Shown: positions 4,536 to 24,936, counted from the first letter of the stretch. The stretch: 64,000 nucleotides of DNA from a virus (IMGVR_UViG_3300021962_000044:1-64000), one strand, 5' to 3'. Made by a program: numbers and translations. The notes: a model not told the origin generated them from the letters alone.

Positions 4536-4603
4536 TGCTGATTGCTCCTTTGTAGCGTTAGAGAGGGTGGGAACTGCAATTCCGCGACCCTCACACTTAT
4601 TTA
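4536..4603 (-). ncRNA. Late promoter plus conserved structured 5' leader of the HNH gene (candidate cis-regulatory RNA)
   Basis: TAAATA-5nt-GAGGGT cgcGG..CC c ACCCTC TCTAACGCT..AAGGAGC.ATCAGC; matches 24872-24936 with compensatory changes. Confidence 0.7.
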
Positions 4604-4618
4604 TCACGGAGAACTAAA

Positions 4619-5119
4619 ATTCGCATCCTAACACTAGACAATGAGTTCTATAACCTAGAAACACTTCCCGAAGAAATTGATGACCTGCGTTTTGCTATAT
4701 TGGACAATAGTAATCCCTCAAACGTAGATTATCATTACATTCCACTAATCTTTTTGGAATCATTTAACAGTCCTGCACTTGTATTAAAGATTGGTAACAG
4801 CACTATTAAGATGCCAGTGGATTGGCAAATACTAATTGGCGAACAAGAACATGGGGACTTAGAGACATTACCATTAACAAGTATCAATGATAGAGGCTTC
4901 AATGCATTTGAGTTTAATCCATTAAGTTCATTCAGTCCCTCATTCGTACCTATCGAGATTGTAGATATCTATCACGATGTAACATGGTATGCACCTCGCT
5001 TGAAAAACGGACAGTTCTTATGTGTGCCGATTGATGATGGACCTAAACCTCGCTGTGTATATTTTGTTAAAGAAATTAGTCGTAATTGTGAAATAGTAGA
5101 TTATAGTCAGGCATTCTAA
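4619..5119 (+). CDS. Hypothetical protein, probable ATT start
   Basis: Frame is open upstream of 4700 (IRILTLDNEFYNLETLPEEIDDLRFAILDNS); GGAG lies 7 nt before ATT at 4619; no in-frame ATG upstream of 4700. Confidence 0.65.
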   Translation: MRILTLDNEFYNLETLPEEIDDLRFAILDNSNPSNVDYHYIPLIFLESFNSPALVLKIGNSTIKMPVDWQILIGEQEHGDLETLPLTSINDRGFNAFEFNPLSSFSPSFVPIEIVDIYHDVTWYAPRLKNGQFLCVPIDDGPKPRCVYFVKEISRNCEIVDYSQAF

Positions 5120-5709
5120 TGGCAACGAAAAAGAGTACACCTACTGATGAAAAGTTTGAAGGGCAAGACTTTGACTTGTTTGATGCTCTTACAGCTATGG
5201 ATAAAAAAGACTATGGTTATTATGACAGATTAACAGAAGAACAACAAAAGAAGTTTGTTCCCTATATGATGACACATTGGATGAGTGCTATTAAAGGATC
5301 GGGTGACGTTCAGGGCTATTATTTACGTAGTGTTGACTATCACGCAAACAAACATCTATTCAATGAATATGTACAGAAACATCCTAAATTGCAATGGTAT
5401 ATGTTATGTGCTAGTAGTCCTGGATTAGGAAAACAGTTCCATCAATGGATTCCCCATTTAGGTAGCAAAGTTACATCATTAAAAGAACCTGCAAAAGCAA
5501 AAGATATCAAAGAATATTACACTAAGATTTATCCCAAAGTTGGTGCAGATGATATTGATGAGATTGCTAAGGCCTTTGTAGTAGAACATAAACGTAAATG
5601 TTATCTAGCAGAAACATTCCCTAACTTAAAACAATCGGATATAGAAGTTCTTAGTCAATTGGTGACTGAAGAAGAAATTAAGCAATATGAAAAAGACCGA
5701 GGAAACTAA
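5119..5709 (+). CDS. Probable clamp-loader small subunit (T4 gp62-like)
   Basis: FVPYMMTHWMS..N..KHPKLQW..KQFHQWI pattern resembles gp62; a gp44-like gene lies at 52256. Confidence 0.55.
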   Translation: MATKKSTPTDEKFEGQDFDLFDALTAMDKKDYGYYDRLTEEQQKKFVPYMMTHWMSAIKGSGDVQGYYLRSVDYHANKHLFNEYVQKHPKLQWYMLCASSPGLGKQFHQWIPHLGSKVTSLKEPAKAKDIKEYYTKIYPKVGADDIDEIAKAFVVEHKRKCYLAETFPNLKQSDIEVLSQLVTEEEIKQYEKDRGN

Positions 5710-6385
5710 ATCACTACATGGTTGTGAGTTCTGTAAAGCTACGTTCCAACGTGAAAGCACAGTACTTAAACATATATGTGAAACTAAACGTAGATGGTTA
5801 GAACGTGACCGTCAAGGTAATCGTGTGGGTTTTCAAGCTTGGCTACAGTTTTATAAGAAAAATACTGCAGGTACAAAAAATCGTACATATGAGGAATTCA
5901 TTAAGAATCCTTATTACCTTGCGTTCATTAAGTTTGGTCTATATTGTGTAGAGATTAAGTGTATTAATGTAAGTAGATTTAGTGATTGGTTATTAAAGAA
6001 TTCAATTCGTATTGATAACTGGCGACAAGACAGTAACTATACAAAGTTCTTATGTGAATATTTACGAACAGAAGATCCATTAGATGCGATACATCGTAGC
6101 ATTGAAACTACAATGGATAAAGCTGAAAATGAAAAAATTCAAAGCAGAGATTATTTACGCTATGGCAATGTAAATAATATATGTTATGAGATTGCCAGAG
6201 GACGAATTAGTCCATGGATGTTATATCAAAGTTCTAGTGGTGTAAGATTTTTAGATACATTACGTGATGACCAGCAGAAGATGATTATTGACTATATCAA
6301 TCCAGAGCAATGGGCCATTAAGTTTAAACGTGAACCAGAAAACGTGAAACAAGTTAAGGAATTATTAAATGCGGGCGGGTACTAG
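5687..6385 (+). CDS. Hypothetical protein with N-terminal zinc finger
   Basis: CEFC...F.....L.KH.C. Confidence 0.65.
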   Translation: MKKTEETKSLHGCEFCKATFQRESTVLKHICETKRRWLERDRQGNRVGFQAWLQFYKKNTAGTKNRTYEEFIKNPYYLAFIKFGLYCVEIKCINVSRFSDWLLKNSIRIDNWRQDSNYTKFLCEYLRTEDPLDAIHRSIETTMDKAENEKIQSRDYLRYGNVNNICYEIARGRISPWMLYQSSSGVRFLDTLRDDQQKMIIDYINPEQWAIKFKREPENVKQVKELLNAGGY

Positions 6386-6563
6386 AGTTCGTATACCATG
6401 GCAGAAAGGTGATATTATAGATTGGAATCAAACCTGTGCTTGGGCTATGGAACAGTTTGGATTACCCGGTGATAGATATGTTACACACTCAACTGAAAAT
6501 TATTTGGATTTCTATTTCAAGGATGAACGTGATGCTATTCTTTTTGAGTTGACCCGTGGCTGA
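6369..6563 (+). CDS. Small FxLxW-family protein 1
   Basis: W..EQFG..FYFKDERDAILFEL. Confidence 0.6.
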   Translation: MRAGTRVRIPWQKGDIIDWNQTCAWAMEQFGLPGDRYVTHSTENYLDFYFKDERDAILFELTRG

Positions 6564-6771
6564 CGTTATCCTATATATTACCGCCAAAAGAACTATGGAA
6601 ATAGGACATGAGTTACGAAACATGGGTTATATTCAGGGTGTTGATTTTGACTATGCTTACTACCAAGAGAAGTATGACAACTTTAGCCATGAACCTATTG
6701 TGAAACGACATGCAAGATTTACTTTTTACAATGATACTAATGCTAGTTATTTTGCGTTGAGGTGGGGATGA
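6556..6771 (+). CDS. Small FxLxW-family protein 2
   Basis: C-terminal FTFYNDTNASYFALRWG; GTG start overlaps the previous gene. Confidence 0.65.
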   Translation: MADVILYITAKRTMEIGHELRNMGYIQGVDFDYAYYQEKYDNFSHEPIVKRHARFTFYNDTNASYFALRWG

Positions 6772-7085
6772 ATATAACAGAAGAAATTATTAATCAAGTA
6801 GCCGATCAAATGGCTAAAGATATTGACGCAATGGTGTTAATGTCTGCATTAGGATGGCATTCTTTTGATTTTAATAAAGGTACCGTTTATGGTCAACCGT
6901 ATTTGACTGTACAACCATTGGACAGTATTAAATGGAAAGAAATGGAAGCATGGATGGTAGAAACATTTGGACCTACAGCACACGACGGTGTATGGACACC
7001 TGACATGAGATGGTATATGAATAATTCTAAGTTTTGGTTTCGTAACAAAAAAGATTTAGAATGGTTTCTACTAAGATGGCAATAA
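6768..7085 (+). CDS. Small FxLxW-family protein 3
   Basis: WMVETFG..FWFRNKKDLEWFLLRWQ; ATGA overlap. Confidence 0.7.
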   Translation: MNITEEIINQVADQMAKDIDAMVLMSALGWHSFDFNKGTVYGQPYLTVQPLDSIKWKEMEAWMVETFGPTAHDGVWTPDMRWYMNNSKFWFRNKKDLEWFLLRWQ

Positions 7086-7315
7086 TTGAACATTATGAAC
7101 GAGACCGTAGTTGGGATGAAACTAAACCTGGTTGGTATGAATGTAGTGTGAAAATAAAACGTATTGACAAATACTTAGAATTAATCGATTGGTTATATGC
7201 CAATATAGGAAAATGTGAAAGACATTGTAGATGGCGTACTACTTCCGATGATACAGTTAGTGTCAAGTTTAGATATGAAAAAGATTATATTATGTTTACG
7301 TTGAGGTGGAGTTGA
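7076..7315 (+). CDS. Small FxLxW-family protein 4
   Basis: WLYANIG..KFRYEKDYIMFTLRWS. Confidence 0.7.
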   Translation: MAIIEHYERDRSWDETKPGWYECSVKIKRIDKYLELIDWLYANIGKCERHCRWRTTSDDTVSVKFRYEKDYIMFTLRWS

Positions 7316-7581
7316 TGGCAACCATACCTCAAATACAAGATTACGATGACGATGATCCAAATATAGAACAGCGTAAAAAGCGTTGGGATTATTGGACAGC
7401 ATTGAAACTTGTACGTAAAGAATATATGGAACAAAACAAAGAGTTTGACGCATATGATTTTGAAGATTACCTTATAGGACAATATGGTATAAGAATGAAC
7501 ATTATTAATGGCAACATAACTGATGGTTATGAGATTGTTGACGAAAAGAAGTACCTAATATTTTTATTAAAATTCCAATGA
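7315..7581 (+). CDS. Small FxLxW-family protein 5
   Basis: IVDEKKYLIFLLKFQ; TGATG coupling. Confidence 0.65.
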   Translation: MATIPQIQDYDDDDPNIEQRKKRWDYWTALKLVRKEYMEQNKEFDAYDFEDYLIGQYGIRMNIINGNITDGYEIVDEKKYLIFLLKFQ

Positions 7582-7925
7582 ACCAATTATTTCCCATAAC
7601 CTCTATACAAAACAACAAATTTATGTTATCATGGCCTAACTGGGATAACATTAAACAGTTTGATACAAAAAAATTATTAATAGAATTATTGTTTAAAGAT
7701 ATGAAAGTTAAAGAAGCTGGAGTTGCATTAGATATGTATGACGGTGAGATAGATATTATGTGGATAGACCATCAATGGTGGATGAAAGATATCAATGGTG
7801 AATATGCAAAGTACCTAGAAGATATGTATACAATTAAAGGTGTAGCTTTTAATAGTGAAATAGAAGCATTGAAGCTACGAGATTACTTAGAGAAAAAATA
7901 TATTTGGAAAACATTGCAGGCGTAA
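7578..7925 (+). CDS. Hypothetical protein
   Basis: 115-aa ORF with ATGA overlap. Confidence 0.65.
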   Translation: MNQLFPITSIQNNKFMLSWPNWDNIKQFDTKKLLIELLFKDMKVKEAGVALDMYDGEIDIMWIDHQWWMKDINGEYAKYLEDMYTIKGVAFNSEIEALKLRDYLEKKYIWKTLQA

Positions 7926-7926
7926 T

Positions 7927-8481
7927 ATGGCACAAGACATAATGATAGATATGGAAACACTTGACACAAGTCCTGATTGTGTTATCTTAACCATTGGTGC
8001 AGTAAGATTTGATCCTAAAGGTAGTGGAGTTGTTGAAAGACTAGAATTACGACCTACTATTGAAGAACAAACAGAAATTTATAATAGGAGTATAAATGAA
8101 GATACATTACGCTGGTGGGGTGAGCAAAGTCCGGCAGCTCTTGAAGAGGCTATGGGAGAAAATGGCAGAATTCCATTTAAAGAATGTATGGAAATACTTT
8201 ATAAGTTTTGTTGGAATCGCCGTGCTGTGTGGAGTAATGGTGCATCATTTGATGTGGTTGTGGCAGAGTCGGCCTGGAGAAACCTTGAAATGCGAACCCC
8301 CTGGCCTTTCTACACCGTTAGAGATACACGTACCTTGTATGAGATAACTGGAGTAAGTCTTAAAGACGGCGGTCACGTAACCAGTCACAAAGCAGTTGAA
8401 GATGCCGAAAGACAAGCAATTGTTGTACAAAAAGCGTATACTAAATTAATTAAAGCAGAACTGGTACCTCCCCCAAAATGA
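7927..8481 (+). CDS. DEDDh 3'-5' exonuclease
   Basis: IDMETL, SNGASFD, RDTRT, HKAVEDA. Confidence 0.85.
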   Translation: MAQDIMIDMETLDTSPDCVILTIGAVRFDPKGSGVVERLELRPTIEEQTEIYNRSINEDTLRWWGEQSPAALEEAMGENGRIPFKECMEILYKFCWNRRAVWSNGASFDVVVAESAWRNLEMRTPWPFYTVRDTRTLYEITGVSLKDGGHVTSHKAVEDAERQAIVVQKAYTKLIKAELVPPPK

Positions 8482-9041
8482 GAATAGACTCAGATATTGA
8501 CATTGACTTTGGTGATAGAGATAAGTTATTACAACTTATAAAATATACGCCGGCAGCAATGCGTAATGTAAAACCAATACGTAAACATGCTACCGGTGTA
8601 TATGTTACTGACATTCCATATGATCCAGTCAACAGTATGTCAAGTATTGATTATACAGTTGCAGATAAACGTGGATATTTTAAATTAGACTTATTGAATG
8701 TTCATGTGTATAGTCAGGTTAGTGATGAACTGCATTTAATAGAATTAATGCGAGAACCTAACTGGGATAAACTTAAAGATCCTGTATTTGTAGAGAAATT
8801 AATTCACTTAAATAATCAATTTTATAATTTACAAAAAATGCCGGAACCAGTAGATAGTATTCCTAGATTAGCTATGTTTCTAGCTGTAATTCGTCCTGGT
8901 AAGAAGCATTTAATAGGTGAACGATGGATTAATGTTGCTAAAACTGTATGGGATAAAGGTACAGACGGGTATGTGTTTAAAAAGTCGCATAGTTTAGCCT
9001 ATTCACAGCTAGTTGTAGTTCATATGAACCTATTAGGGTAA
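8478..9041 (+). CDS. dnaE: DNA polymerase III alpha-like catalytic fragment (C-part of split mini-DnaE)
   Basis: DIDIDF, KHATGVYV, FKLDLL, AVIRPG and GYVFKKSHSLAY match DnaE motifs. Confidence 0.8.
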   Translation: MRIDSDIDIDFGDRDKLLQLIKYTPAAMRNVKPIRKHATGVYVTDIPYDPVNSMSSIDYTVADKRGYFKLDLLNVHVYSQVSDELHLIELMREPNWDKLKDPVFVEKLIHLNNQFYNLQKMPEPVDSIPRLAMFLAVIRPGKKHLIGERWINVAKTVWDKGTDGYVFKKSHSLAYSQLVVVHMNLLG

Positions 9042-9413
9042 GCGTTTAACTAATGTAATACTACGGCGTTTGCTTCTACGTTTATTTAATTCAATTATAC
9101 TACAGACAGGACCATGTAGTATAGTAAGACTTTTGTTATTAAATGTCCTAATATAGGGCTTAAATATACTCCATTCATCTTTTAAAAATAGATTGATGGG
9201 TATTAATCTATTACTTTCCCACCACCAAACATCACCTAATTCTAAGAATTTCTCTTTAATAGCGTTATCTATTATAGAACCGTAATCATATATAGTGGTG
9301 ACTATATCGTCCCTATTTTGAACAATTCCTACATAATCTTGATTTGCGTAGGAACAAATAGTTATGAAGGGGTGATTTTCGCCTAATCGTTTAAAAAACT
9401 CGTTTTGTATCAT
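9033..9413 (-). CDS. Hypothetical protein
   Basis: Probable ATG 9413 (MIQNEFF) downstream of a TAAATA element. Confidence 0.65.
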   Translation of the reverse strand: MIQNEFFKRLGENHPFITICSYANQDYVGIVQNRDDIVTTIYDYGSIIDNAIKEKFLELGDVWWWESNRLIPINLFLKDEWSIFKPYIRTFNNKSLTILHGPVCSIIELNKRRSKRRSITLVKRLP

Positions 9414-9498
9414 TAAAATTATAGTCTCGGATATATTTATCGGGCAAACCAAACCATTAATAAATTAATATATAAATACACAATAGGAGATTACATTT

Positions 9499-10266
9499 GT
9501 GTACTCAACCCAAGTTTTCATTTATACACAACGCCAAATCGTTGTATTATTATCAGGATATTCGCCAAGGAGTTATATGCCTCAGTATGCCAAACCACTG
9601 ACCCTACACAAGGGTGTAGATAACATGATTCAGTTCCAGTTTCTAAATCAACAACAAAAACCTGTTGATATTACTGGTAAATCAATAACATGTAGAATTA
9701 TCAACTATCAGGGTAATGAATTATTATTGCAAAAAGCACTAACCTTGCAATTACCTGCAACAGGAATTGCCGCATTAATGTTAGGTCCTGCTGATATAGA
9801 AAGTTTTGATGCTCAAAAATGTTATTACTCATTAGAGATTCCGGTAGGAGAATTTGATTATCCTGTATTCGTTGACCAAAATGCAGGTGCTAGAGGTGAT
9901 TTAAATATTGTTAATAGTGTACTTCCTAGCTTTGTACCTTCAATGCCAGTTACAATTCCTACAGGACAATCGTTCCCTAACAACAATAGTAATGGTAATA
10001 GCGATAGCAACTTGACTTATTATACCAGTGTAATTACAACCAATGATTCTAGTGTATTAACTTTGCAGGCAGAATATAGTGATTATTATGGTAATATTGC
10101 CATTGAAGGTTCTACTATTGTTGATGGAGATTGGTATCCAATATTCGCTGACACATACACAGAAGTAACAGATACAAAAGGGTATGTTGTAGAAGGCTTC
10201 CACCCATATATCAGAATGCAATTTGAAAGCAATGCTGGTTTTGTAACCAACATATTGGCAAGATAA
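9499..10266 (+). CDS. Putative virion structural protein (BppU-N-like beta-sandwich)
   Basis: FQFLNQQQKPVDITG motif; AGGAG RBS with GTG start. Confidence 0.5.
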   Translation: MYSTQVFIYTQRQIVVLLSGYSPRSYMPQYAKPLTLHKGVDNMIQFQFLNQQQKPVDITGKSITCRIINYQGNELLLQKALTLQLPATGIAALMLGPADIESFDAQKCYYSLEIPVGEFDYPVFVDQNAGARGDLNIVNSVLPSFVPSMPVTIPTGQSFPNNNSNGNSDSNLTYYTSVITTNDSSVLTLQAEYSDYYGNIAIEGSTIVDGDWYPIFADTYTEVTDTKGYVVEGFHPYIRMQFESNAGFVTNILAR

Positions 10267-10315
10267 ACAACCATAGTTGTTGATATCTCTGTTAGAGTAT
10301 GTTATACTACTACTA

Positions 10316-11293
10316 ATGTTTGATATTTTATCTATTATTCCGGGAAAGAAAAAAACAACAAGTAGTGGCTGGCACAGCTTCAACGCTATTTGTTGTAGCC
10401 ATCTCGGGCACAAACCCGATCGCAGAATGCGTGGTGGCATCAAGTTTGACGGACAAACTAATTGGTCTATGCATTGTTTCAATTGTGGATACAAATGTAA
10501 CTTTGTATTAGGTCGTAGCATAAGCTATAAAACAAAACAACTATTAATGTGGTGTGGTATAGATGATACACAAATAGGTAAGTGGAGTTTAGAAAGTCTA
10601 CAACAAAAAGACTTATTAGATATTGTTATTCAAAAGAAAACTAAATTTAAAATCAAATTCAAAGACCATGAATTGCCTGAAGGTGAATTGCTTGAAGGAA
10701 ATAATCCATTACACAAAGAGTATATTGATTATGTGCAGTCGAGGGGGATAAATTATAATGAGTATCCGTTCTTAATAACACCTACTGCAAAAGGTCGTTA
10801 CGCAAATAGAATAATCATTCCCTACACATATAAAAATAAAATCGTTGGTCACACCAGTAGATTCTTAGACAATAAAATACCAAAATATATTAACGAACAA
10901 CAACCGGGTTATTTGTTCAACATTGATATACAGAAGCCTGAGTGGCAAGTATGTATATTAACAGAAGGTATATTTGATGCATTAAGCATTGATGGTGTCG
11001 CAATCATGCACGATGATATAAGCAATGAACAAGCACAACTGCTTGCAACATTGAATAAACAAATCATTGTTGTTCCAGATAGAGATAAGACAGGATTAAA
11101 AATATGTGATAGAGCTTTAGAGTTGGGCTATAGTGTTAGTTTACCTAATTGGGAACCGGGTATTAAAGATGTCAATGATGCCGTAGTGCGTTACGGCAAG
11201 TTGGCAACTCTATTAAGTATCTTGCAAAATGCTACAATGAGTAAAATAAAAATAGAAATACAGAGGAAGAAAATTGAGAAAACAATCCAATAA
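10316..11293 (+). CDS. DNA primase (T4 gp61/DnaG-like)
   Basis: Zn-binding CC..HCFNC; TOPRIM EGIFDAL, PDRDKTG, KDVND; ATG 7 nt after a TTGATA-17-TATACT promoter. Confidence 0.85.
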   Translation: MFDILSIIPGKKKTTSSGWHSFNAICCSHLGHKPDRRMRGGIKFDGQTNWSMHCFNCGYKCNFVLGRSISYKTKQLLMWCGIDDTQIGKWSLESLQQKDLLDIVIQKKTKFKIKFKDHELPEGELLEGNNPLHKEYIDYVQSRGINYNEYPFLITPTAKGRYANRIIIPYTYKNKIVGHTSRFLDNKIPKYINEQQPGYLFNIDIQKPEWQVCILTEGIFDALSIDGVAIMHDDISNEQAQLLATLNKQIIVVPDRDKTGLKICDRALELGYSVSLPNWEPGIKDVNDAVVRYGKLATLLSILQNATMSKIKIEIQRKKIEKTIQ

Positions 11294-12713
11294 TAAAGAA
11301 TATACAGTAGAGATGCAGAAGTTGTTTCTGCAAATGATGATTACTAATGCTGAACTTTATACCAGAGTTATGAACATTATGAACTCTGAAAACTTTGATA
11401 GGTCTTTGCGTCCAGTAGCAGAGTTATTCAAAGAACATACAACAAAGTATAGTGTATTGCCTGATAGCACACAGATAAAAGCAATCACTGGTATAGATAT
11501 TGAAGTGATACCTGAATTAGTACAGGGACATTATGATTGGTTCTTCGAAGAATTTGAAGCATTTACTAGACGACAAGAGTTAGAAAGAGCTATTCTTAAA
11601 TCAGCCGATTTATTAGAAAAAGGTGAGTTTGAACCAGTTGAAAAATTAATCAAAGATGCAGTACAAATCAGTTTACAAAAAGACATGGGTACAGATTATT
11701 TTCTTGACCCTGCTGGTCGTATTAACAAATATTTTAATAGTGGTGGGCAAGTTAGCACAGGCTGGCCGCAACTTGATAGAATACTATATGGTGGATTTAG
11801 TCGTGGCGAATTGAATATTTTTGCAGGTGGTTCTGGCTCAGGTAAAAGTCTTGTTATGATGAATATTGCATTAAATTGGTTACAGACAGGAATGAGCGGT
11901 GTATATGTTACATTAGAATTGAGTGAAGAATTAACTAGTTTGCGTACTGATGCGATGTTAACTAACATGGGTACAAAAGATATTCGTAGAGATATTGGAT
12001 CAACTGAACTTAAAGTTAAAATGGTAGGTAAAAAGTCAGGACAATATCGTGTTAAAGCACTACCCGCACAAAGTAATGTAAATGATATTCGTGCTTATTT
12101 AAAAGAAGTACAGATCCAAACAGGTATTAAAATTGACTTTGTTATGATTGACTATTTGGATCTAGTAATGCCGGTATCTGTTAAAGTCAATCCTAATGAC
12201 CAGTTTATTAAAGACAAGTATGTTGCTGAAGAATTACGTAATCTTGCAAAAGAGATGGGTATATTGATGGTAACTGCAAGTCAATTGAATCGTACAGCGG
12301 TTGATGAAATTGAGTTTGACCATAGTCACATTGCTGGTGGTATCAGTAAGATTAATACAGCAGATAATGTGTTTGGTATCTTTACAAGTCGCAGTATGAG
12401 AGAACGTGGAAAGTATCAAATTCAATGTATGAAAAGTCGTAGTTCAACGGGTGTAGGACAAAAGATTGATTTAGATTATAATGTAGAAACCATGAGAATT
12501 AGTGATTCCGGTGGTGACGGTGAAGATAGTTACAGACCACAACCTAGCGCCACTGATATTATGAATAAGTTAAAACCCCAATCTACATTACAGTCTACAG
12601 AACCTATTATAGATCAATCTACAGGCGAGATATTAGAACCTGAAAACAAGAAAGTTGTAGTAGATGTTCAGGGGTCAAAGCTTAAAAACTTACTTAATAG
12701 TTTAAAGAAATAA
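11274..12713 (+). CDS. Replicative DnaB/gp41-like helicase
   Basis: GGSGSGKS, IDYLDL, TASQLNR, MKSR. Confidence 0.9.
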   Translation: MRKQSNNKEYTVEMQKLFLQMMITNAELYTRVMNIMNSENFDRSLRPVAELFKEHTTKYSVLPDSTQIKAITGIDIEVIPELVQGHYDWFFEEFEAFTRRQELERAILKSADLLEKGEFEPVEKLIKDAVQISLQKDMGTDYFLDPAGRINKYFNSGGQVSTGWPQLDRILYGGFSRGELNIFAGGSGSGKSLVMMNIALNWLQTGMSGVYVTLELSEELTSLRTDAMLTNMGTKDIRRDIGSTELKVKMVGKKSGQYRVKALPAQSNVNDIRAYLKEVQIQTGIKIDFVMIDYLDLVMPVSVKVNPNDQFIKDKYVAEELRNLAKEMGILMVTASQLNRTAVDEIEFDHSHIAGGISKINTADNVFGIFTSRSMRERGKYQIQCMKSRSSTGVGQKIDLDYNVETMRISDSGGDGEDSYRPQPSATDIMNKLKPQSTLQSTEPIIDQSTGEILEPENKKVVVDVQGSKLKNLLNSLKK

Positions 12714-12741
12714 TCCTTAAAATAGATAAATACTATTAGGA
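12714..12741 (+). promoter_or_regulatory. Late promoter in the loop of an RBS-occluding hairpin
   Basis: TCCT-taa-AATAG [ATAAATA] CTATT-AGGA. Confidence 0.55.
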
Positions 12742-12748
12742 AATTAAT

Positions 12749-14148: not shown

Positions 14149-14226
14149 GCCCAAAACCAACATTTTTTGTTGCCAGGCATAAATAATAGTAGAGCTATAT
14201 GCTCACAAACTTAAAGGAATTTTATC

Positions 14227-15586: not shown

Positions 15587-15635
15587 CAATAAAACAAAAA
15601 AGATAAATACTTTATATTAGTCTTGGAATATAACT

Positions 15636-16681: not shown

Positions 16682-16682
16682 G

Positions 16683-17009: not shown

Positions 17010-17053
17010 CCTAAATTCTTGCATTTAAATATAAAATATAATATAATAGTTAA

Positions 17054-17740
17054 ATGTACATTCCAAACAAATATAATTATGTCCCAATGAGCCGTGTAGA
17101 AATAGACGGCAAACGCAGATACGCTACACCAGATGGTGAAAAACTCCCTTCAGTTACTACTATTTTAGACGCTACTAAAAGCGAAGAATCTAAGAAAGCA
17201 TTAATGGAATGGCGTAAACGTGTAGGTGCACAAAAAGCACAAGAAATCACAACAGAAGCCGCAGGCCGTGGAACACGAATGCACAAATGGTTAGAAAACT
17301 ATATTAAAACAGGAGCAACGGGTGAGCCCGGAAGCAATCCATATAGCTTACAAAGCCATACTATGGCACAAACTATCATTAGTGAAGGTCTTATTAAATG
17401 CAATGAATATTGGGGTACAGAAGTTCCTCTCTATTATCCAAAAATTTATGCAGGGACAACAGACCTAGTAGGTATACATGATGGTGATGAAGCTATTATG
17501 GATCACAAACAAACAAATAAACCTAAAAAACGTGAGTGGATTGAAGATTATTTTGTTCAGTTAGCCGCTTATGCTAATGCTCACAATGAAGTGCATGGTA
17601 CAAAGATACGTAAAGGTGTTATTTTTATGTGTTCCGCTGATAATCTTTATCAGGAATTCATATTAGAAGGATCTGATTTTGACAAGTATTCAGATATTTG
17701 GTTCAATCGTGTAGAAAAATATTACATGAGCTTTCTGTAA
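17054..17740 (+). CDS. PD-(D/E)XK exonuclease
   Basis: LPSVTTIL, GTRMH, AGTTDL, DHKQ, QLAAY; leaderless after TTGCAT-17-TATAAT. Confidence 0.85.
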   Translation: MYIPNKYNYVPMSRVEIDGKRRYATPDGEKLPSVTTILDATKSEESKKALMEWRKRVGAQKAQEITTEAAGRGTRMHKWLENYIKTGATGEPGSNPYSLQSHTMAQTIISEGLIKCNEYWGTEVPLYYPKIYAGTTDLVGIHDGDEAIMDHKQTNKPKKREWIEDYFVQLAAYANAHNEVHGTKIRKGVIFMCSADNLYQEFILEGSDFDKYSDIWFNRVEKYYMSFL

Positions 17741-17783
17741 GAAATAATGATAAATAAGTGTAAATCTTCAAAGAATTACACTT

Positions 17784-19262
17784 ATGGCCATTATACAGAT
17801 ATCGAAAATTCAACAACGTTCAGGTAACCTTGTAGACCTGCCACAATTATCAGAAGCACAATTAGGTTGGGCAAATGATGCTAAACGCCTTTTTATAGGT
17901 GGTACCGGCAATGCTAATACTTATAATGAAAACATTGAGGTATTAACATCATATTCTGATATTACCTTTAGCCAAATAAATGGTAGTGAAGGTAACCTAG
18001 ATATTAATTCTGCCGCATCAGGACAAGTTTTGGGTTATAACGGAACTGATTGGGTTAACAAAGGCGGCACAGCAGGCGGACTAATTAATTTAGGCACAGT
18101 AGCCAATGTTAAATTAGGTGGAGGTGTTAATGGATATGTGTTACAAACAGATGGTTTGGGTAATTTAAGTTGGACTACTCAAACAGGTGGTGGCGGCAAT
18201 GCTAACGCTGCCGGCTCTAATACACAAATTCAATTTAATAATGCTGGTTTGTTTGGTGGAAATTCAGGATTTACTTTTGAACAAGTTACCGGCGCAATGG
18301 CAGTTCCAGGAACACTTGCAGTAAGCAATACAATTACCGGAACAAGATTAATATCTAATATCGCTACAGGAACAGCCCCGTTAACGGTAACAAGTACCAC
18401 ACAAGTTGCTAACTTAAATGTAGCTACATCAGGTGTTGCAGGAACAGTAACAACAGCGGCACAACCTAATATCACCTCAGTAGGAACACTAACAAGCTTA
18501 ACAGTAACTGGTAATATTATCGGTGGCAATGTATATGCTAACACAGGCACAATTGGTGCAACTAATTTAACTGGTACACTAACAACAGCCGCACAGCCAA
18601 ACATAACAAGTGTAGGCACATTAACTAGTTTAACTGTTACAGGAAATATTACGAGTGGCAATGTATATGCTAATAGTGGTACTGTTGGCGCTAGTTTATT
18701 AACTGGTACATTAACCACTGCGGCACAACCAAATATTACAAGTGTTAGCACTTCATTTACCAATCTTACATTTGCAAATGCACAAACAATCAGTGGTAAT
18801 AATATGACATTGACTACTGGCGCAAACACAAATGTTGGTACTATTACTGGTAATTGGTCATTATCTACCGGATCACAGCTACGTGCCACATATGCTGACT
18901 TAGCAGAATATTATGTAGCAGATCAACATTATGAATCTGGTACTGTTTTAGCATTTGGCGGAGACAAAGAAGTTACACTAGCAGAAGATGGAACATCACG
19001 TGTTGCAGGTATTGTTTCAACTAACCCAGCATATGTATTGAATACTGCATGTGAAGGTGAACATACCGTAGTATTAGCATTACAAGGACGTGTTCCTTGC
19101 AAGGTGCGTGGAATAATTCGTAAAGGTGATATGATGGTATCTGGCGGAAATGGCTTTGCTAGAGCAAGTTTATCACCTCATATGGGAACAGTTATTGGCA
19201 AAGCATTAGAAAACTTTGATGGAATCGAGGGCGTAATTGAAGTCGCTGTCGGTAGATTATAA
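17784..19262 (+). CDS. Tail fibre/receptor-binding protein (Mtd-N-like start, C-terminal intramolecular chaperone-like domain)
   Basis: IQQRSG..LPQL..LGWA; three TTAAQPNITSV repeats; YADLAEYY..GRVPCKV..GKALE. Confidence 0.75.
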   Translation: MAIIQISKIQQRSGNLVDLPQLSEAQLGWANDAKRLFIGGTGNANTYNENIEVLTSYSDITFSQINGSEGNLDINSAASGQVLGYNGTDWVNKGGTAGGLINLGTVANVKLGGGVNGYVLQTDGLGNLSWTTQTGGGGNANAAGSNTQIQFNNAGLFGGNSGFTFEQVTGAMAVPGTLAVSNTITGTRLISNIATGTAPLTVTSTTQVANLNVATSGVAGTVTTAAQPNITSVGTLTSLTVTGNIIGGNVYANTGTIGATNLTGTLTTAAQPNITSVGTLTSLTVTGNITSGNVYANSGTVGASLLTGTLTTAAQPNITSVSTSFTNLTFANAQTISGNNMTLTTGANTNVGTITGNWSLSTGSQLRATYADLAEYYVADQHYESGTVLAFGGDKEVTLAEDGTSRVAGIVSTNPAYVLNTACEGEHTVVLALQGRVPCKVRGIIRKGDMMVSGGNGFARASLSPHMGTVIGKALENFDGIEGVIEVAVGRL

Positions 19263-19275
19263 ATAGGAAAATAAA

Positions 19276-19563
19276 ATGGCATCAGCAATTTATACAGCAA
19301 ACAGTTCAAGTCAATTAACAACAGTAGCAACTACCGATAAAGTTCGTATTGCTACTACAACATCAGCTATAGCTATAGCAGTAGGTAATTCTAGCATTAC
19401 GGCTAACTTAACGACAGGAGAAATTATCCCTGCTAACACAGTAGACAATAACTTCTTGGTTGGCCAAGGTAATTATATTGCTTACATCAATGTAGCAGGT
19501 ACAGCAGGAGCATTCAGTATAACTCAACTAGGTGCAAATCACGCCAATACAGGCACTGAATAA
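19276..19563 (+). CDS. Small virion protein
   Basis: Ala/Thr-rich; TAAATA and AGGA upstream. Confidence 0.6.
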   Translation: MASAIYTANSSSQLTTVATTDKVRIATTTSAIAIAVGNSSITANLTTGEIIPANTVDNNFLVGQGNYIAYINVAGTAGAFSITQLGANHANTGTE

Positions 19564-19599
19564 TATATATTAGATAAATATTTTATAAGGAAAAATAAA

Positions 19600-20490
19600 A
19601 TGGGAAATGCTCTAAAGATTAGAAAATATCAGGATGGTCAAGTTATTGATGACGGCTTTCCTAACGATGGCTCAACAAACAACGGATATAGTGACTCTCA
19701 ACCCGGTATTGTAGGCGGTATTAATGAAGATAGCGATATGATTCGTTGTGATGCGGCTGTACTTGTAAAAGGTTTAGGAACTATTACGGCTGATACAGGT
19801 AGTTCCACAGTTACAGGAACTGGTACACATTTTAGTACTGATGGATTTACTGGCTCTAGTCAACTTTGGGTTAGTGATGGTGCCGGTGGTTACACATCAT
19901 TGGGAATCTATAGTAGCACAACTGATGACGAAGAATTAGAATTAGGTGACCCTTCAGGTTCAAATGTAACTGATAGTGCTTGGTACTATACCGCAACTAG
20001 CAACAGTTCTATCGTTCGTCAAAAAGGTTCTAGAAAATTCTTAGTTGCGGCCAATAACAATGTCATCCAAGATGAATCTATTGCGACCGGTCAGGCATAT
20101 ATGATTGCTACTGTGGGTGATACTGATTGGCAAGCACTTGGTGCTGATGCAACAGCCGCCCAATATGATATTTTTACAGCATTGAAAGATGGAACAGGTT
20201 TAACAACTAATGGTGAAGTTTATGCAGTTGCTACATGTTTATTAGTAGACTTAAACAGTCCAACAGAACCTAACACAATTAGTGTTCAAATTAATGATGA
20301 TGGCAATACATATTATGCAAGCCGTTTGAAGAACAAGTTCAGCACTAACTTTGCTACACCATATGCAAATTGCAATCCAGGTGTAACATTCTCTGCTACA
20401 TTCTTTAATGATAATGGTAACACATTACCTAACCCATCAGCTTCTGGTGACTTAGTTTATACATTAGTTGGTACAGAAAACTGGTGTTAA
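19600..20490 (+). CDS. Virion structural protein, paralogue of 21318-22709
   Basis: MGNALKI, IVRQKG.RKFLV, YMIATVGDTDWQALGA. Confidence 0.65.
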   Translation: MGNALKIRKYQDGQVIDDGFPNDGSTNNGYSDSQPGIVGGINEDSDMIRCDAAVLVKGLGTITADTGSSTVTGTGTHFSTDGFTGSSQLWVSDGAGGYTSLGIYSSTTDDEELELGDPSGSNVTDSAWYYTATSNSSIVRQKGSRKFLVAANNNVIQDESIATGQAYMIATVGDTDWQALGADATAAQYDIFTALKDGTGLTTNGEVYAVATCLLVDLNSPTEPNTISVQINDDGNTYYASRLKNKFSTNFATPYANCNPGVTFSATFFNDNGNTLPNPSASGDLVYTLVGTENWC

Positions 20491-20508
20491 TACTATAACA
20501 CTCAAAAG

Positions 20509-20531
20509 AAAAAGCGACTTAGGTCGCTTTT
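20509..20531. terminator. Terminator, possibly bidirectional
   Basis: AAAAGCGAC-TTAG-GTCGCTTTT. Confidence 0.8.
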
Positions 20532-20546
20532 CCATTAAATAAACGC

Positions 20547-21227
20547 ATGATTACATATAGAAACCCAAACACATTAGGACATCTTAAAGAAGACTGGATT
20601 GAAACTTATCGCACGTTCAGTAACAATAGTTATTACGATTCAAACTATATTCATTATAGCGACTTAGAAGTTATTAACGATGATAGGGTACAACCTAGAA
20701 ACTGTGTACCCATTCATCAACATTGTGATATGGAAATCTTAGGATACATTATAGATGGTCCTTGCTATCACAATGACAACTTGCATAACTACGGAGAAGT
20801 TCCTAGTGGATGTGTACAGCGCATGAGTTCAGGAACGGGTATTTGGCATACTGAAGGTAACTTATCAGATAACCCAATTCGTTATTTACAGATTTGGCTA
20901 CGACCAAACAAACATAATTTTCCACCACAATACGATGTAATGCAATTTACTAGAAAAGATAAATTGAATAAGTTTTGTCCCATCGCCAGTAATACTGGTC
21001 CTATACATATTAATAGCGATGCAAAAGTATTTGCAGGCATATTCACTCAAGATTTTAACGTCAACTTGAATAATAGTCGTAGATATTATGTATATGTTGT
21101 TAGCGGGACAGTAAAAATCAATGGATATGATTGTGTCGAAACTTCAGGATTGAGTTTTGAGAGTGAAGATTTGTTAACTATTGAGCAGGCCAAGGATGCA
21201 GAGGTGTTGCTTTTTGACCTTCGTTGA
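20547..21227 (+). CDS. Pirin-family bicupin protein (YhhW-like)
   Basis: TFS..YYD, VINDD, HQHCDMEI, QRMSSGTGIWHTE, LQIW, LLFDL. Confidence 0.9.
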   Translation: MITYRNPNTLGHLKEDWIETYRTFSNNSYYDSNYIHYSDLEVINDDRVQPRNCVPIHQHCDMEILGYIIDGPCYHNDNLHNYGEVPSGCVQRMSSGTGIWHTEGNLSDNPIRYLQIWLRPNKHNFPPQYDVMQFTRKDKLNKFCPIASNTGPIHINSDAKVFAGIFTQDFNVNLNNSRRYYVYVVSGTVKINGYDCVETSGLSFESEDLLTIEQAKDAEVLLFDLR

Positions 21228-21242
21228 TAAATATATGATACG

Positions 21243-21295
21243 CTCTTAATTCTGAGAGTTTATGCAGTACCCACTGCGTAGCGGCTAGAACCCGC
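21243..21295 (+). promoter_or_regulatory. Three-hairpin 5' leader after a late promoter
   Basis: CTCTTA/TGAGAG, TATGCAGT/ACTGCGTA and GCGG-CTAGAAC-CCGC stems. Confidence 0.5.
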
Positions 21296-21317
21296 AATTA
21301 TAATTAAGGAAAATCAA

Positions 21318-22709
21318 ATGGGACGTCCTCTAAAAATCGCAAAGGCTCAAGCAGTCTTAACAATTACTGATACAGCCGCAACAGGTAGTATCGTTACAAT
21401 ATCAGGTGGAAATTTAACTACATCACCAACAGTTGGTGTAGCTAAAGGTATGCCATTCCAAGTAGCTACAACAGTTGGTGGCCTAACAGCAGGTGTTACA
21501 TATTTTATAAATTCAATACTATCAAATACTACATTTGATGTATCTGCTACAGACCTAAGTGTTCAGCCACAAGTTATGGCAACACTGTCTGACACAAGTA
21601 GTCAAACAGTTTTAATGTCGGTTGGTGTAGTTGATGCTTATTTTAATAATCCAGTAGGTGGTGCAGGTTTCCCTGCAACTAACGCTAATACATATGGTGT
21701 AGTTGGTGGCAATACAGCAATTGTTGGTAATCAAGTATTAACACGTGTTGCTATTGGTATCAATGGTACAGGTACATTGTACACACCTACAGCAGTTAAC
21801 ACAAGCACAGTGGTAGTAGGTGTAGGTACTGATTTAGCTAACTTAACAACTGGTGCCGCACTTCAAGTAGGTGTTGCTAACATTAATGGTAGTACTGATT
21901 ATGTTAATCTAGGTTTTGCAAGTGCAACAAAAGGTGATGTAACAGTAGCTGTTGCAAACACTGTAGTATCAGGAAATATAATTGGAACTTCTGGTAATGC
22001 CCAAACTCTTATAGTAGATATGCCAATTACATTTAGTGCTAATTTGGGTACTCTAGTAACAGGTACAACATATTTTGTTAAGGCTATTGCTAATGCTGCC
22101 GCATTTACAGTATCTACTAGCCAAAGTGGCCCTGAAGTACAAATGGCTGCCGCTACTGGTACACCAGATGCTGTAATGAACCGTGTTGTATTAACTGCTA
22201 ATGCAAATGTTGTAGCAAGTGGTGCGGCATATGTTTATGCAAATGATGAAGCTGGTTTTATCGTTCGTCAAAAAGGCAAAACAAAATATTTAGTTACAGG
22301 TGGTACAACTGGCTTGACAGCACAATGCTATACAGCTAACGTAGCAAACACAGCATTAACACCAAACACAATGAACATCTTGTCTACTGACGCCGCATCT
22401 GCTACAGCATTTGTATCAAGTATTAATGACTATAACTCTGAAGTGTTCCCAACACAAGTTGCAGCCGGTTCATTATCAGCAGGTACTGTTTACACAATTT
22501 ACAGTGCAGGTACAACAAACTGGACAGCAGTTGGTGCTATGGCTAATATGACAGGTATTACATTCACTGCTACTGGCGCAGGATCTGGTACAGGTACTGC
22601 TGTTGCATATACTGTTAACCCTGACGTTATTGCTACATTCAATACTGCGGCGGCTGCTAATGCGGCTAACGGTCAACCTAACCCGATCGTAGTTATTGCT
22701 AGTGCTTAA
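21318..22709 (+). CDS. Virion structural protein
   Basis: Ala/Thr/Gly-rich; MGRPLKI, IVRQKGKTKYLV; two G.TYF modules. Confidence 0.7.
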   Translation: MGRPLKIAKAQAVLTITDTAATGSIVTISGGNLTTSPTVGVAKGMPFQVATTVGGLTAGVTYFINSILSNTTFDVSATDLSVQPQVMATLSDTSSQTVLMSVGVVDAYFNNPVGGAGFPATNANTYGVVGGNTAIVGNQVLTRVAIGINGTGTLYTPTAVNTSTVVVGVGTDLANLTTGAALQVGVANINGSTDYVNLGFASATKGDVTVAVANTVVSGNIIGTSGNAQTLIVDMPITFSANLGTLVTGTTYFVKAIANAAAFTVSTSQSGPEVQMAAATGTPDAVMNRVVLTANANVVASGAAYVYANDEAGFIVRQKGKTKYLVTGGTTGLTAQCYTANVANTALTPNTMNILSTDAASATAFVSSINDYNSEVFPTQVAAGSLSAGTVYTIYSAGTTNWTAVGAMANMTGITFTATGAGSGTGTAVAYTVNPDVIATFNTAAAANAANGQPNPIVVIASA

Positions 22710-23023
22710 TGATGACAAGTACTATTAAAATGCCGACTCAGACAACTAAAACTGATATCGCTGTACTTCAAGTTCAAGTTAAAAACATTGAACAGGACGT
22801 CAGCGAAATCAAAACTAGTCTTAAAGAGATGCATGAATGTCTTGACCGTAACGCAGAAGAAACTAGAGAACTTCTAACTAATATGCGTAACGAAGATATG
22901 ATTGCTCATAAAGAATTAGGAGCAAAAGTTTCTGCTTTAGAAAAGTGGAGATGGATGATGATGGGTGCAGGCATAGTTTTAGGATCATTGGGATTTGATA
23001 TGATAGCAAAAATGCTAAAATAA
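22709..23023 (+). CDS. Coiled-coil protein with C-terminal TM helix (holin/XhlA-like)
   Basis: Heptad coiled coil followed by WRWMMMGAGIVLGSLG. Confidence 0.55.
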   Translation: MMTSTIKMPTQTTKTDIAVLQVQVKNIEQDVSEIKTSLKEMHECLDRNAEETRELLTNMRNEDMIAHKELGAKVSALEKWRWMMMGAGIVLGSLGFDMIAKMLK

Positions 23024-23049
23024 AAAAAGAGACTTAGGTCTCTTTTTTT
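23022..23049. terminator. Bidirectional terminator between convergent genes
   Basis: A7-GAGAC-TTAG-GTCTC-T7. Confidence 0.9.
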
Positions 23050-23450
23050 GTAAGTGCTTTTAATTTCTTTTGAACAACATCAAAATTTACAGTACTAAAC
23101 AGTCCAGGATGTAATGGTTTAGGATATTGATTATCTCCCACCCATGCATACCCACAATGTTCTTCATTTAGTACTGGAGTAAATTCTTCATCTATCTTGC
23201 AAAAAAATGTATGATATGTAAATGTATTATTTACAAATTTTTGTATAGGTACTAATTTTGGATTTTCTGGAAAGTACCCAATTTCTTCATTACATTCTCT
23301 ATCAATGCCCACAAGTAATGTTTCACCATTTTCTATTTTCCCACCCGGAATGCCCCAGTTACCCGGATTTTTATTATCCGTTCTAAGTAGATATAAGAAT
23401 CGTTGTGTGTTTTTAGCGTAAAAGAAAACGCCTGCTGAGATATTATTCAT
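23034..23450 (-). CDS. Nudix hydrolase
   Basis: Nudix box GGKIENGETLLVGIDRECNEEIG; LNEEH..YAW. Confidence 0.9.
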   Translation of the reverse strand: MNNISAGVFFYAKNTQRFLYLLRTDNKNPGNWGIPGGKIENGETLLVGIDRECNEEIGYFPENPKLVPIQKFVNNTFTYHTFFCKIDEEFTPVLNEEHCGYAWVGDNQYPKPLHPGLFSTVNFDVVQKKLKALTKKET

Positions 23451-23478
23451 ATGCTAAGACATTATAGCATAAAGTAAA

Positions 23479-24855
23479 TTAGATTACAATACTATAATCA
23501 CCCTGGTCGTAAAAACCTTCCCACGATTTCATCCAGGAACCTTCTGAAGCAACATATCGATATTGTACATTAGTTGTTAAATTGGTTACGTATTGTACTT
23601 CAGTATCTACCGCACTGTTAAACGCAACAAACCATTCACCTGTTGTATCATCATATTCAATAATATCGTTTGCATATGCTACTACATTTCCCCATGCAAT
23701 AGTTGTATTATCCGGACTACCAATATCTTCTACTATAAGATATCTAATTCCGTTAACAGGAGTAGGTAACCCTGCATTTGGTCCAGTGACTAATGGGTTG
23801 ACCACGCTGTCTACAGGATCCAATGTATTTTGAGGCAGGGTATCCGGATCAATATTATAGATTAATAATCTATCATCATTTGGATCTGGAACAATAGTAC
23901 CTACAATTTCAGTATTCATAAAAGGATTTTGTAACCATATCTGACTAATACCTGGACGTAATGTTCCGTATACATTAAGCAAACTTGACCAATACAAACT
24001 AGTATTGGGATTAGGTGGCAAATCTAAATTTTCATTATCGGGATAGAAATCTTGATTAGCAGGTAATAATTGTAAACTATTACCTATTAATAATAACTTG
24101 TATCCGTATGGTGTAATCTTTTGTCTTGTACCTAATAACAAATCATCATTCTGTATATCATCTAATGCTTTACCAGAGAATATACTTGCAATAATCTTTT
24201 CAATAACACCCATCTTTTTAAGTTTGGCTGCATTGCTAATCCATATAGGCATGTAGAATTTCCAACTTAATACGTCAATGGGATTACCTGTACCTTGCGG
24301 AATAGTTCTACTACTAAATGTTAAACCATCTTGATATACAACACTTAAACTAGTCCAATCAATAAAGTTATCAGTAGATTGAATTTCTAATGAAGGATTG
24401 AATAGTGTACCTAGTTGTTCAATCAATTCTAATTTTTGATTATAATTAGTTGTCCATAAATCTACACTCATACGTAATGTATAGGGTACTGGCATTAATC
24501 TTTCAACAGTAAATGCCTGTCCTTGTACAGTTTCATAACTTTGTGTTTCTGTGTTATAGCTACGTTGACGAACTTGAATTTTATCAATGAAAGTGGGGTC
24601 CTGAGTTCTTTTTTGATCATATTCTAGACCAGTAATATAATATGTAATAAGTGGTGCGCTAGGTAAATTACTTGCACTGTTATTAGCAATGATAGTACTT
24701 GCTTGACGACTTGAGTCACCATACATAACTGGTACACGAACAAGTATATCATTACCTGCAGGATCTTTACCTTTAGTAACATACCAATTACTAAAGATTT
24801 TTCCAAACTGAATTAGAAATCTGCGGACCTGATTATCGTAGAAGAAGGCTGCCAA
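23479..24855 (-). CDS. Tail terminator/sheath stabiliser (T4 gp15-like)
   Basis: FFYDNQVRRFLIQFGKIFSN..VPVMYG..MPVPY..EQL..LFNP; TTG start at 24855 after AAGGA. Confidence 0.7.
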   Translation of the reverse strand: MAAFFYDNQVRRFLIQFGKIFSNWYVTKGKDPAGNDILVRVPVMYGDSSRQASTIIANNSASNLPSAPLITYYITGLEYDQKRTQDPTFIDKIQVRQRSYNTETQSYETVQGQAFTVERLMPVPYTLRMSVDLWTTNYNQKLELIEQLGTLFNPSLEIQSTDNFIDWTSLSVVYQDGLTFSSRTIPQGTGNPIDVLSWKFYMPIWISNAAKLKKMGVIEKIIASIFSGKALDDIQNDDLLLGTRQKITPYGYKLLLIGNSLQLLPANQDFYPDNENLDLPPNPNTSLYWSSLLNVYGTLRPGISQIWLQNPFMNTEIVGTIVPDPNDDRLLIYNIDPDTLPQNTLDPVDSVVNPLVTGPNAGLPTPVNGIRYLIVEDIGSPDNTTIAWGNVVAYANDIIEYDDTTGEWFVAFNSAVDTEVQYVTNLTTNVQYRYVASEGSWMKSWEGFYDQGDYSIVI

Positions 24856-24871
24856 AATAGTATTCCTTGTA

Positions 24872-24936
24872 TAAATAATAGTGTAACTCGCGGCTTCTGA
24901 CACCCAGTTACTCTAACGCTATTAAGGAGCATCAGC
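24872..24936 (+). ncRNA. Late promoter plus conserved structured 5' leader of the GIY-YIG gene (candidate cis-regulatory RNA)
   Basis: TAAATA-5nt-GTAACT cgcGG..CC c AGTTAC TCTAACGCT..AAGGAGCATCAGC; covaries with 4536-4603. Confidence 0.7.

Follow-up and report, generated by a model that had tools for sequence, protein, structure and literature searches.

In T-even phages and in phage Aeh1, several endonuclease genes (I-TevI, I-TevII, I-TevIII, segB and mobE) combine a late promoter with a hairpin that sequesters the ribosome-binding site (RBS) (PMC2988022), and invading endonucleases have been described as having to fit into host transcription and as possible carriers of promoters for their neighbours (PMC2988022, PMC2677866). 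The subject of the present report is a small cassette that stands before two unrelated homing endonuclease genes, one of the HNH and one of the GIY-YIG type, in the virus record IMGVR_UViG_3300021962_000044, of which the first 64 kb out of 111 kb (positions 1 to 64,000, hereafter the window) were analysed. Like the T-even and Aeh1 leaders, the cassette has a late-promoter sequence directly upstream and a hairpin in the leader, and expression would likewise be delayed or limited. In those leaders, however, the hairpin forms in a sense read-through transcript, holds the Shine-Dalgarno (SD) sequence and has the late start inside it, whereas in the cassette the SD lies outside the hairpin, the predicted start lies at its base, and the fold belongs to the other strand (PMC2988022).

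Hairpins with TATAAATA boxes have also been described in the 5' untranslated regions (UTRs) of metagenomic free-standing endonucleases associated with 'fractured genes' (Dassa et al., 2009; PMC2677866). There too, hairpins and late boxes precede GIY-YIG and other endonucleases in aquatic metagenomes and the invading gene brings control signals for its neighbours; that paper reads the hairpins as sense-strand elements that mask the RBS. An antisense RNA overlapping a homing endonuclease gene and its upstream neighbour, CfrI of about 225 nucleotides (nt), has been detected in the T4-like cyanophage S-PM2, with no function assigned to it (Millard et al., 2010, as summarised in PMC2984593). No GenBank phage matches the cassette leader, and CfrI is not known to belong to a portable cassette. 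The PeSL cassettes of T4-like phages are small, conserved, composite regulatory units that flank variable genes and serve as exchange points, but they consist of an early promoter and a stem-loop on one strand and have no tie to endonucleases or antisense transcription (PMC4122927, PMC2839356).

Two insertion sequences provide further parallels. In IS10/Tn10, convergent promoters lie at the 5' end of the selfish element's enzyme gene, and the small folded antisense RNA-OUT is complementary to the translation initiation region of RNA-IN and can act in trans between copies (multicopy inhibition) (PMC5006887). The cassette, known here from sequence alone, differs in showing no sequence or Rfam relation to RNA-OUT, in having predicted phage late promoters, in an overlap of about 55-60 nt that takes in the whole leader, in its two hairpins with an anti-SD in a loop, in serving a homing endonuclease and not a transposase, and in an antisense transcript that can continue into a host gene. 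In IS200, art200 is similarly a cis-encoded small RNA opposite the 5' UTR of the mobile element's enzyme gene; its sequence is unrelated, the element is an enterobacterial insertion sequence, and Hfq dependence has been shown (PMC4513863). Cis-antisense control of a selfish element's enzyme gene is already known; the portable late-promoter cassette, which would be a further form of it, is undescribed.

A conserved fold on the strand opposite the nuclease gene

The two leaders in the window had been predicted, from this sequence alone, to share a covarying structured RNA that travels independently of the nuclease domain. Both were located and read exactly as described, and a 20-nt core, CTCTAACGCTANWAAGGAGC, matches these two leaders only in the window, with 0.01 matches expected by chance. 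Relatives were collected through three pattern scans of viral contigs, each fixing a different part of the module, which returned at least 120, at least 120 and 96 loci; 173 distinct copies from 161 loci were parsed. Five chance matches aside, the whole architecture is present in every match listed: (T)ATAAATA, about 5 nt, the outer stem arm P1, CRC, the inner stem P2 with its loop, C, P1', TCTAA(C/T/A)GCT, 3-11 nt, the SD motif AAGGAGC, (A)ATCAGC, 0-3 nt, and ATG followed by TATTTA. Among the 96 loci matching AAGGAGCATCAGCATGnnTATTTA, the hairpin and TCTAA.GCT occur in all 56 distinct upstream sequences listed, and one more locus ended at a contig edge.

Selection on the conserved fold acts on the complement of the nuclease strand. 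An A.C mismatch on one strand reads as a G.U pair on the other, and such pairs are diagnostic of the strand that folds. When 148 distinct copies are aligned in the antisense orientation, 98.9% of the pairs at 19 paired positions are standard, a value equalled in 0 of 500 shuffles and far from the 31-50% of slid controls, and double changes are found at 13 of the 19 pairs, so that the covariation proposed from two copies is borne out, and is extensive, in the family as a whole. On the sense strand, the same positions are standard in 87.1% of cases, and the ratio of G.U to A.C, 345 to 14 on the antisense strand, becomes 14 to 345. For the helix designated P0 the figures are 99.6% antisense against 75.3% sense. 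P1 on the antisense strand has 17 G.U and no A.C; on the nuclease strand of all 173 copies, parsed independently, it has 1018 Watson-Crick pairs, 20 A.C or C.A and no G.U, and of 40 distinct pairs of P1 arms, 14 carry an A.C on the nuclease strand (a G.U in the antisense RNA) and none a sense G.U. What was taken for a structured leader of the nuclease mRNA is a covarying, portable module whose strand-diagnostic pairs place the selected fold on the opposite strand.

P0 is an 8-bp hairpin in which CUGAUGCU, the complement of AGC plus ATCAG, pairs with AGCGUUAG, the complement of CTAACGCT, through a helix that includes two conserved G.U pairs; its 7-nt loop, CCUUNNN, is an anti-SD. Pairing between TCTAACGCT and ATCAGC is confined to the antisense RNA, the sense strand having two A.C mismatches, and the single strands that had been recorded as invariant are therefore the two arms of an antisense-only helix. 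The proposed pairing of GCT with AGC survives as the end of this helix, but not in the mRNA, since the helix holds only in the antisense RNA. Antisense pairing is kept in all of the natural variants ACCAGC, GCCAGC, ATTAGC, TCTAATGCT and TCTAACACT and in two double changes. In the second hairpin, what appears on the nuclease strand as a CRC bulge and a single C is a G:Y pair between two bulged G (GC in 115 copies, GU in 24, AU in 8). A conserved apical loop motif is ruled out by the 84 different loops found among the 173 copies. Minimum free energy (MFE) folds of all three copies of this genome (the third is described below) form both hairpins on the antisense strand, at -16.7 kcal/mol for the antisense RNA of the GIY-YIG cassette; in the sense-strand MFE of the GIY-YIG copy neither hairpin forms. 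Nothing pointed to a self-cleaving RNA, or to the nuclease cofactor that had been suggested as a role for the leader.

Nuclease genes behind the cassette and its distribution

The cassette, a portable element of 85-90 bp, belongs to a lineage of T4-superfamily phages, uncultured and apparently from fresh water, where it forms the beginning of free-standing homing endonuclease genes. The source phage of the window is itself a distant member of that superfamily, encoding UvsW, a gp15 tail-sheath stabiliser and virion proteins. The open reading frame (ORF) at 24937-25551 matches phrog_314 and has about 30% identity to annotated GIY-YIG/seg-like endonucleases, and that at 3942-4535 matches phrog_655 and NUMOD3; the two products are, respectively, a seg-like GIY-YIG endonuclease and a Mob-like HNH endonuclease with NUMOD3. 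A third copy was found at 72005-72090 on the minus strand of the same record, outside the window, with a covariance model built from the family, and it heads another type of HNH gene, with an EIHHIDGN motif.

Tabulation of the downstream genes gave the same picture across the family. Pfam assigns the 91 full-length downstream ORFs to NUMOD3 (29), HNH (15), HNH_3 (13), HNH_5 (8), GIY-YIG/SegE (9) and a TnsA-like nuclease (2), with C2H2 fingers also present, and PHROGs calls most of them homing endonucleases. The HNH and GIY-YIG domains, the NUMOD modules and a sporadic insertion between conserved genes are those of homing endonucleases; 79 of 80 and 37 of 39 relatives of the neighbouring host genes are cassette-free alleles. 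As shared NUMOD modules merge families when whole proteins are clustered, clustering was confined to the N-terminal domains (residues 6-95), and the cassette heads at least 16 such N-domain groups. One identical 30-nt hairpin heads three different N-domain groups, and the cassette has therefore been exchanged between nuclease genes, which bears out the view that it moves independently of the nuclease domain. At five loci (L046, L033, L039, L017 and L065) intact cassettes are followed by very short ORFs of 15-87 amino acids (aa), probably decaying nuclease genes that have retained the cassette.

Rfam 15, with RNA-OUT, the freshwater motifs and ribozymes among its families, gave no match at the cassette on either strand of the three copies with E up to 10, and the novelty claimed for it held in this search; the cassette defines a large structured-RNA family absent from Rfam. 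A literature search on the motif string gave nothing relevant. A search of 185,579 species genomes gave a single match, in a phage-like contig of a Haliscomenobacter metagenome-assembled genome (MAG). This complete cassette, at 744-810 on the minus strand of NZ_JBBAKG010000049.1, lies in a 42.9-kb contig with phage-family proteins from a Haliscomenobacter sp. MAG (Bacteroidota); the match could be a hint of the host or a mis-binned phage contig, and is too weak for naming a host.

Promoter boxes and insertion sites

The features of the two cassettes in the window and of the genes beside them are as follows.

GIY-YIG cassette and neighbours
24870-24877, plus strand: forward T4-type late-promoter box TATAAATA, predicted mRNA start at G 24883
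24883-24888 and 24906-24911, plus strand: stem arms GTAACT and AGTTAC
24912-24920, plus strand: TCTAACGCT
24924-24930 and 24931-24936, plus strand: AAGGAGC and ATCAGC, with the ATG at 24937
24883-24911, minus strand: hairpin 2, with a 6-bp P1, the G:Y pair between two bulged G, and P2; fold selected on the minus strand
24912-24936, minus strand: hairpin 1 (P0), CUGAUGCU pairing with AGCGUUAG, loop CCUUAAU (anti-SD); read on the plus strand as TCTAACGCT, ATT, AAGGAGC (SD) and ATCAGC
24942-24948, minus strand: backward-facing late-promoter box ATAAATA in GIY-YIG codons 2-4, predicted antisense start at G 24936
24870-24936, minus strand: predicted antisense RNA, some 67 nt long should it stop at the U-rich tract; if it does not, this stretch is the leader of the gp15 mRNA (5' end)
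24937-25551, plus strand: GIY-YIG-type homing endonuclease gene, 204 aa
23479-24855, minus strand: gp15 tail-sheath stabiliser gene, TTG start at 24855 and SD AAGGAA at 24868-24863; start set by alignment with cassette-free alleles

HNH cassette and neighbours
4604-4598, minus strand: forward late-promoter box ATAAATA (4598-4604), predicted mRNA start at G 4592
4592-4587 and 4568-4563, minus strand: stem arms GAGGGT and ACCCTC, enclosing CGC, GG..CC and C
4562-4554, minus strand: TCTAACGCT
4550-4544 and 4542-4537, minus strand: AAGGAGC and ATCAGC, with the ATG at 4535
4563-4592, plus strand: hairpin 2; the plus strand, opposite to the HNH gene, is the one selected to fold
4537-4562, plus strand: hairpin 1 (P0, one bulged U); the minus strand reads TCTAACGCT, ACA, AAGGAGC, A and ATCAGC
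4526-4532, plus strand: backward late-promoter-like box CTAAATA in HNH codons 2-4 (TAT TTA G), predicted antisense start at G 4537
3942-4535, minus strand: Mob-like HNH homing endonuclease gene with NUMOD3, 197 aa
4608-5119, plus strand: host gene phrog_11279, start reduced to ATT 4619 after the SD GGAG at 4608-4611, directly beyond the cassette

The T4 late-promoter consensus is TATAAATA, used without a -35 element, and transcription starts about 6 nt downstream of it. On the forward side of the cassette, 105 of 163 copies read ATAAATA, 5 nt, T-G, and in these the stem begins 5 nt after TAAATA as had been noted for the window. At least 10 ORFs of the window also have an ATAAATA 13-48 nt ahead of their starts, and this box is therefore very probably the late promoter of this phage; CTAAATA makes up 12% of the forward boxes in the family. 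On the other side of the cassette, the TATTTA that follows the ATG is the reverse complement of the same box (TATTTAT), such that the other strand reads ATAAATA, 5 nt, T-G, and the flanks of this backward box resemble those of the forward one, with an A before the box and T-G at the start. It is found in three reading frames, ATG nnT ATT TAT (encoding xIY) in 66 of 106 copies, ATG nTA TTT AT ((I/L)FI) in 17 and ATG TAT TTA (YL) in 11, and a single protein family uses all three, 6, 8 and 7 times. A cause at the protein level for the shared 'xIY' N-terminus is ruled out by this occurrence of the same nucleotides in three frames within one family. The distance from CAGC to TATTTA stays at 4-6 nt and is 5 nt in 120 of 153 copies. 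T4-type late-promoter sequences (ATAAATA or CTAAATA, 5 nt, T-G) thus stand on both sides, and the module appears, from this arrangement, to be tied to late promoters. Masking of a read-through transcript by pairing of AUAAAUA with UAUUUAU, in the style of T4 gene e/I-TevI, was considered and rejected: loci with CTAAATA show no matching downstream change, and a 6-bp A/U helix closing about 70 nt would be unstable.

About two thirds of the cassettes in the family are divergent from their upstream neighbour, whose start lies no more than 36 nt away in about 25 of 67 divergent loci; the remaining third are co-oriented, with the neighbour's stop codon in or beside the TATAAATA box. Neither class has given up the backward TATTTA or an intact P0: of the co-oriented cassettes, 30 of 35 have TATTTA and all 35 an intact P0, and TATTTA is present in 59 of 64 divergent cassettes.

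Comparison with cassette-free alleles defines both insertions in the window. Of 80 close gp15 relatives (80-92% identity), 79 are without the cassette; their gp15 ATG comes 4-12 nt after the stop codon of the upstream virion-protein gene. The GIY-YIG cassette and gene occupy exactly this gap, antiparallel to both genes; the GIY-YIG gene and the converging host gene share TTAA (25548-25551) as stop codons, and gp15 has a new AAGGAA ahead of its start at TTG 24855. Hairpin 2 and this start lie only about 25 nt apart, no promoter box is found between them, and gp15 would therefore be transcribed only via the antisense side of the cassette, its transcript coming from the backward box at 24942-24948 or from a late box at 27273-27279 upstream of the virion-protein gene. 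The sole relative of the 80 with a cassette at the same site (L351) has it about 130 nt upstream of the gp15 match at 3001; that cassette has diverged (ACTGATACTCC ... GTGTTAGA), and its P0 carries a compensatory change from G:C to A:U.

At the other site, 37 of 39 relatives of the gene that follows uvsW (homologues of the gene at 4619) have no HNH cassette, and their ATG stands directly behind a consensus TTGACA-17-TATAAT sigma-70 promoter. The HNH cassette has replaced this promoter in the window, where the homologous start codon is ATT 4619 behind GGAG (4608-4611), with several silent changes in the first codons, and where the uvsW and HNH stop codons abut (TAATTA, 3939-3944). An SD sequence sits just outside each cassette in the window, on the host-gene side.

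Several smaller observations belong to these sites. Neither a spacer nor a terminator is present at the 3' junctions (25548-25551 and 3939-3944). In L363, L387 and other cassette-free alleles the ATG comes only 5-6 nt after TTGACA-17-TATAAT, the -35 box overlapping the last uvsW codons, which suggests a leaderless or nearly leaderless early mRNA for the homologues of the 4619 gene that lack the cassette. Both host genes adjoining a cassette are without an ATG (TTG 24855, ATT 4619) and have first codons silently changed relative to cassette-free alleles; these changes may be marks of co-conversion or of target-site immunity left by the endonucleases. A further ATAAATA box, at 3944-3950 on the plus strand, lies directly after the uvsW stop and inside the 3' end of the opposite-strand HNH gene, and if active it would transcribe antisense through that entire gene. 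Elsewhere in the window, the only Rfam match at gathering score is freshwater-2 (21243-21320). This RNA (RF02980, 62 bits; within 21227-21320, plus strand) begins 9 nt after an ATAAATA box and ends at the start codon of an ORF at 21318-22709 (463 aa, no Pfam or PHROG match), and here it looks like a 5' leader motif of a late gene.

Probable antisense control of the nuclease and other readings

It is probable, if by no means assured, that the cassette is a pair of face-to-face late promoters, one for the nuclease mRNA and the other for an antisense RNA of two hairpins, which holds the nuclease in check and in the window doubles as a host-gene leader. From the forward box, the nuclease mRNA would begin with the first G of P1; from the backward box, in nuclease codons 2-4, an antisense RNA would begin with the G that faces the final C of ATCAGC. 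This RNA would consist of the 5'-terminal P0, hairpin 2 (P1, the G:Y pair with its bulged G, and P2) and a U-rich tract where it may end, and would be fully complementary to the nuclease mRNA from its 5' end as far as the start codon, with only the antisense RNA selected to fold. By analogy with the action of IS10 RNA-OUT on RNA-IN, it would most likely limit translation of the nuclease or stability of its mRNA. By its sequence, the cassette has two marks of a cis-antisense regulator: an opposing promoter sequence inside or beside the 5' end of its target, and a conserved fold specific to the antisense strand. As both cassettes lie antiparallel and exactly between two host genes, the antisense transcript would run into gp15 and the 4619 gene, giving each a promoter and a leader.

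Several points weigh against this account. The antisense fold is supported by comparative data and has weak thermodynamic support, single-sequence z-scores being only -1.2 to -1.6, and the sampling by sequence patterns fixed part of the P0 arms in each scan, the partner arm being left free each time. As a terminator, hairpin 2 has weak features, an A/U-rich base and two non-U bases before the U-rich tract. Given that the antisense transcript must lead gp15 and the 4619 gene, hairpin 2 and the U-rich tract would be no tight terminator here; a tight one would silence gp15, and a discrete small RNA may therefore be a minority product in the window. Finally, P1 and P2 are 98% and 95% standard on the sense strand as well, which leaves the mRNA able to form hairpin 2 and perhaps to use it.

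This last point is also the starting point for a function in the sense mRNA, as first proposed, with the hairpin and single strands acting as a 5' stabiliser, a translational switch or a protein-binding site. In most copies the mRNA start predicted from the forward box falls exactly at the base of P1, in the manner of 5'-hairpin stabilisers, and T-even endonuclease genes do use leader hairpins (PMC2988022), yet on the sense strand P1 shows 17-20 A.C mismatches and not one G.U, P0 and the G:Y pair are confined to the antisense strand, and the SD is outside the hairpin, all of which makes a sense function improbable. Nor is the hairpin one that sequesters the RBS: the SD follows P1 on its 3' side at a distance of 12 nt, the predicted start coincides with the first base of P1, and no helix touches the SD region except P0, which on the sense strand has two A.C mismatches. 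A fully open ribosome site on the sense mRNA is not claimed, as the predicted unpaired probability of the SD is only 0.39. It is unlikely, though less so, that the cassette is solely an adaptor for host genes, in which the backward promoter, two-hairpin leader and SD restore expression of the separated phage gene and pairing with the nuclease mRNA is incidental. The losses at the two sites (translational coupling for gp15, the sigma-70 promoter and ATG for the 4619 gene), the proximity of host start codons in about 25 of 67 divergent loci and the more frequent retention of the full ATAAATA in divergent (51 of 59) than in co-oriented contexts (19 of 30) all fit such a role; it leaves aside, however, the third of cassettes that are co-oriented and serve no host gene but keep P0 and TATTTA, and the third copy in this genome, whose neighbour has an ATAAATA box of its own between the cassette and its start codon.

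The remaining two readings have very little probability. An insulator or terminator formed by hairpin 2 and the U-rich tract would halt host-strand transcripts after their antisense passage through the nuclease gene, and the tract, which is the complement of the forward promoter, does average 6.8 U in 12 nt after the antisense hairpin; such a terminator would silence gp15 in the window and leaves P0 and the backward promoter unexplained, and a simple terminator scan found nothing at either cassette site. As for a strand-specific structure in single-stranded DNA, recognised in homing, repair or recombination, DNA hairpins can likewise accommodate G.T, and the strand asymmetry and conserved bulged G resemble attC sites and IS200/IS605 ends; no recombinase is associated with the cassette, however, and correctly spaced promoter boxes on both sides suit transcription, so that this too is scarcely credible. 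Set against these rivals, control by an antisense RNA is the best-supported joint account of the P0 wobbles and of the backward box in co-oriented contexts.

Under antisense control, P0 and its loop are nearly invariant between cassettes while hairpin 2 varies, and action in trans on other cassette-bearing mRNAs is therefore possible. We offer only tentatively the wider proposal of a shared network, in which each antisense RNA would dampen all cassette-bearing nuclease mRNAs in the cell, those of co-infecting phages included, while the cassette also served as adaptor and the P0 wobbles were kept so that one strand folds. If true, such a network would serve a whole guild of unrelated selfish nucleases as a system of dosage control or immunity, and the cassette would be a promoter-and-leader adaptor permitting insertion between coupled essential genes without polar effect.

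With its conserved G.U pairs, the cassette is a clear case of strand-asymmetric folding enforced by such pairs. How free-standing homing endonucleases are tamed and how they insert harmlessly is known for a few T-even cases, all of them involving sense-strand hairpins. One compact cassette, spread over at least three nuclease superfamilies and 161 viral contigs, appears to solve both problems via antisense RNA.

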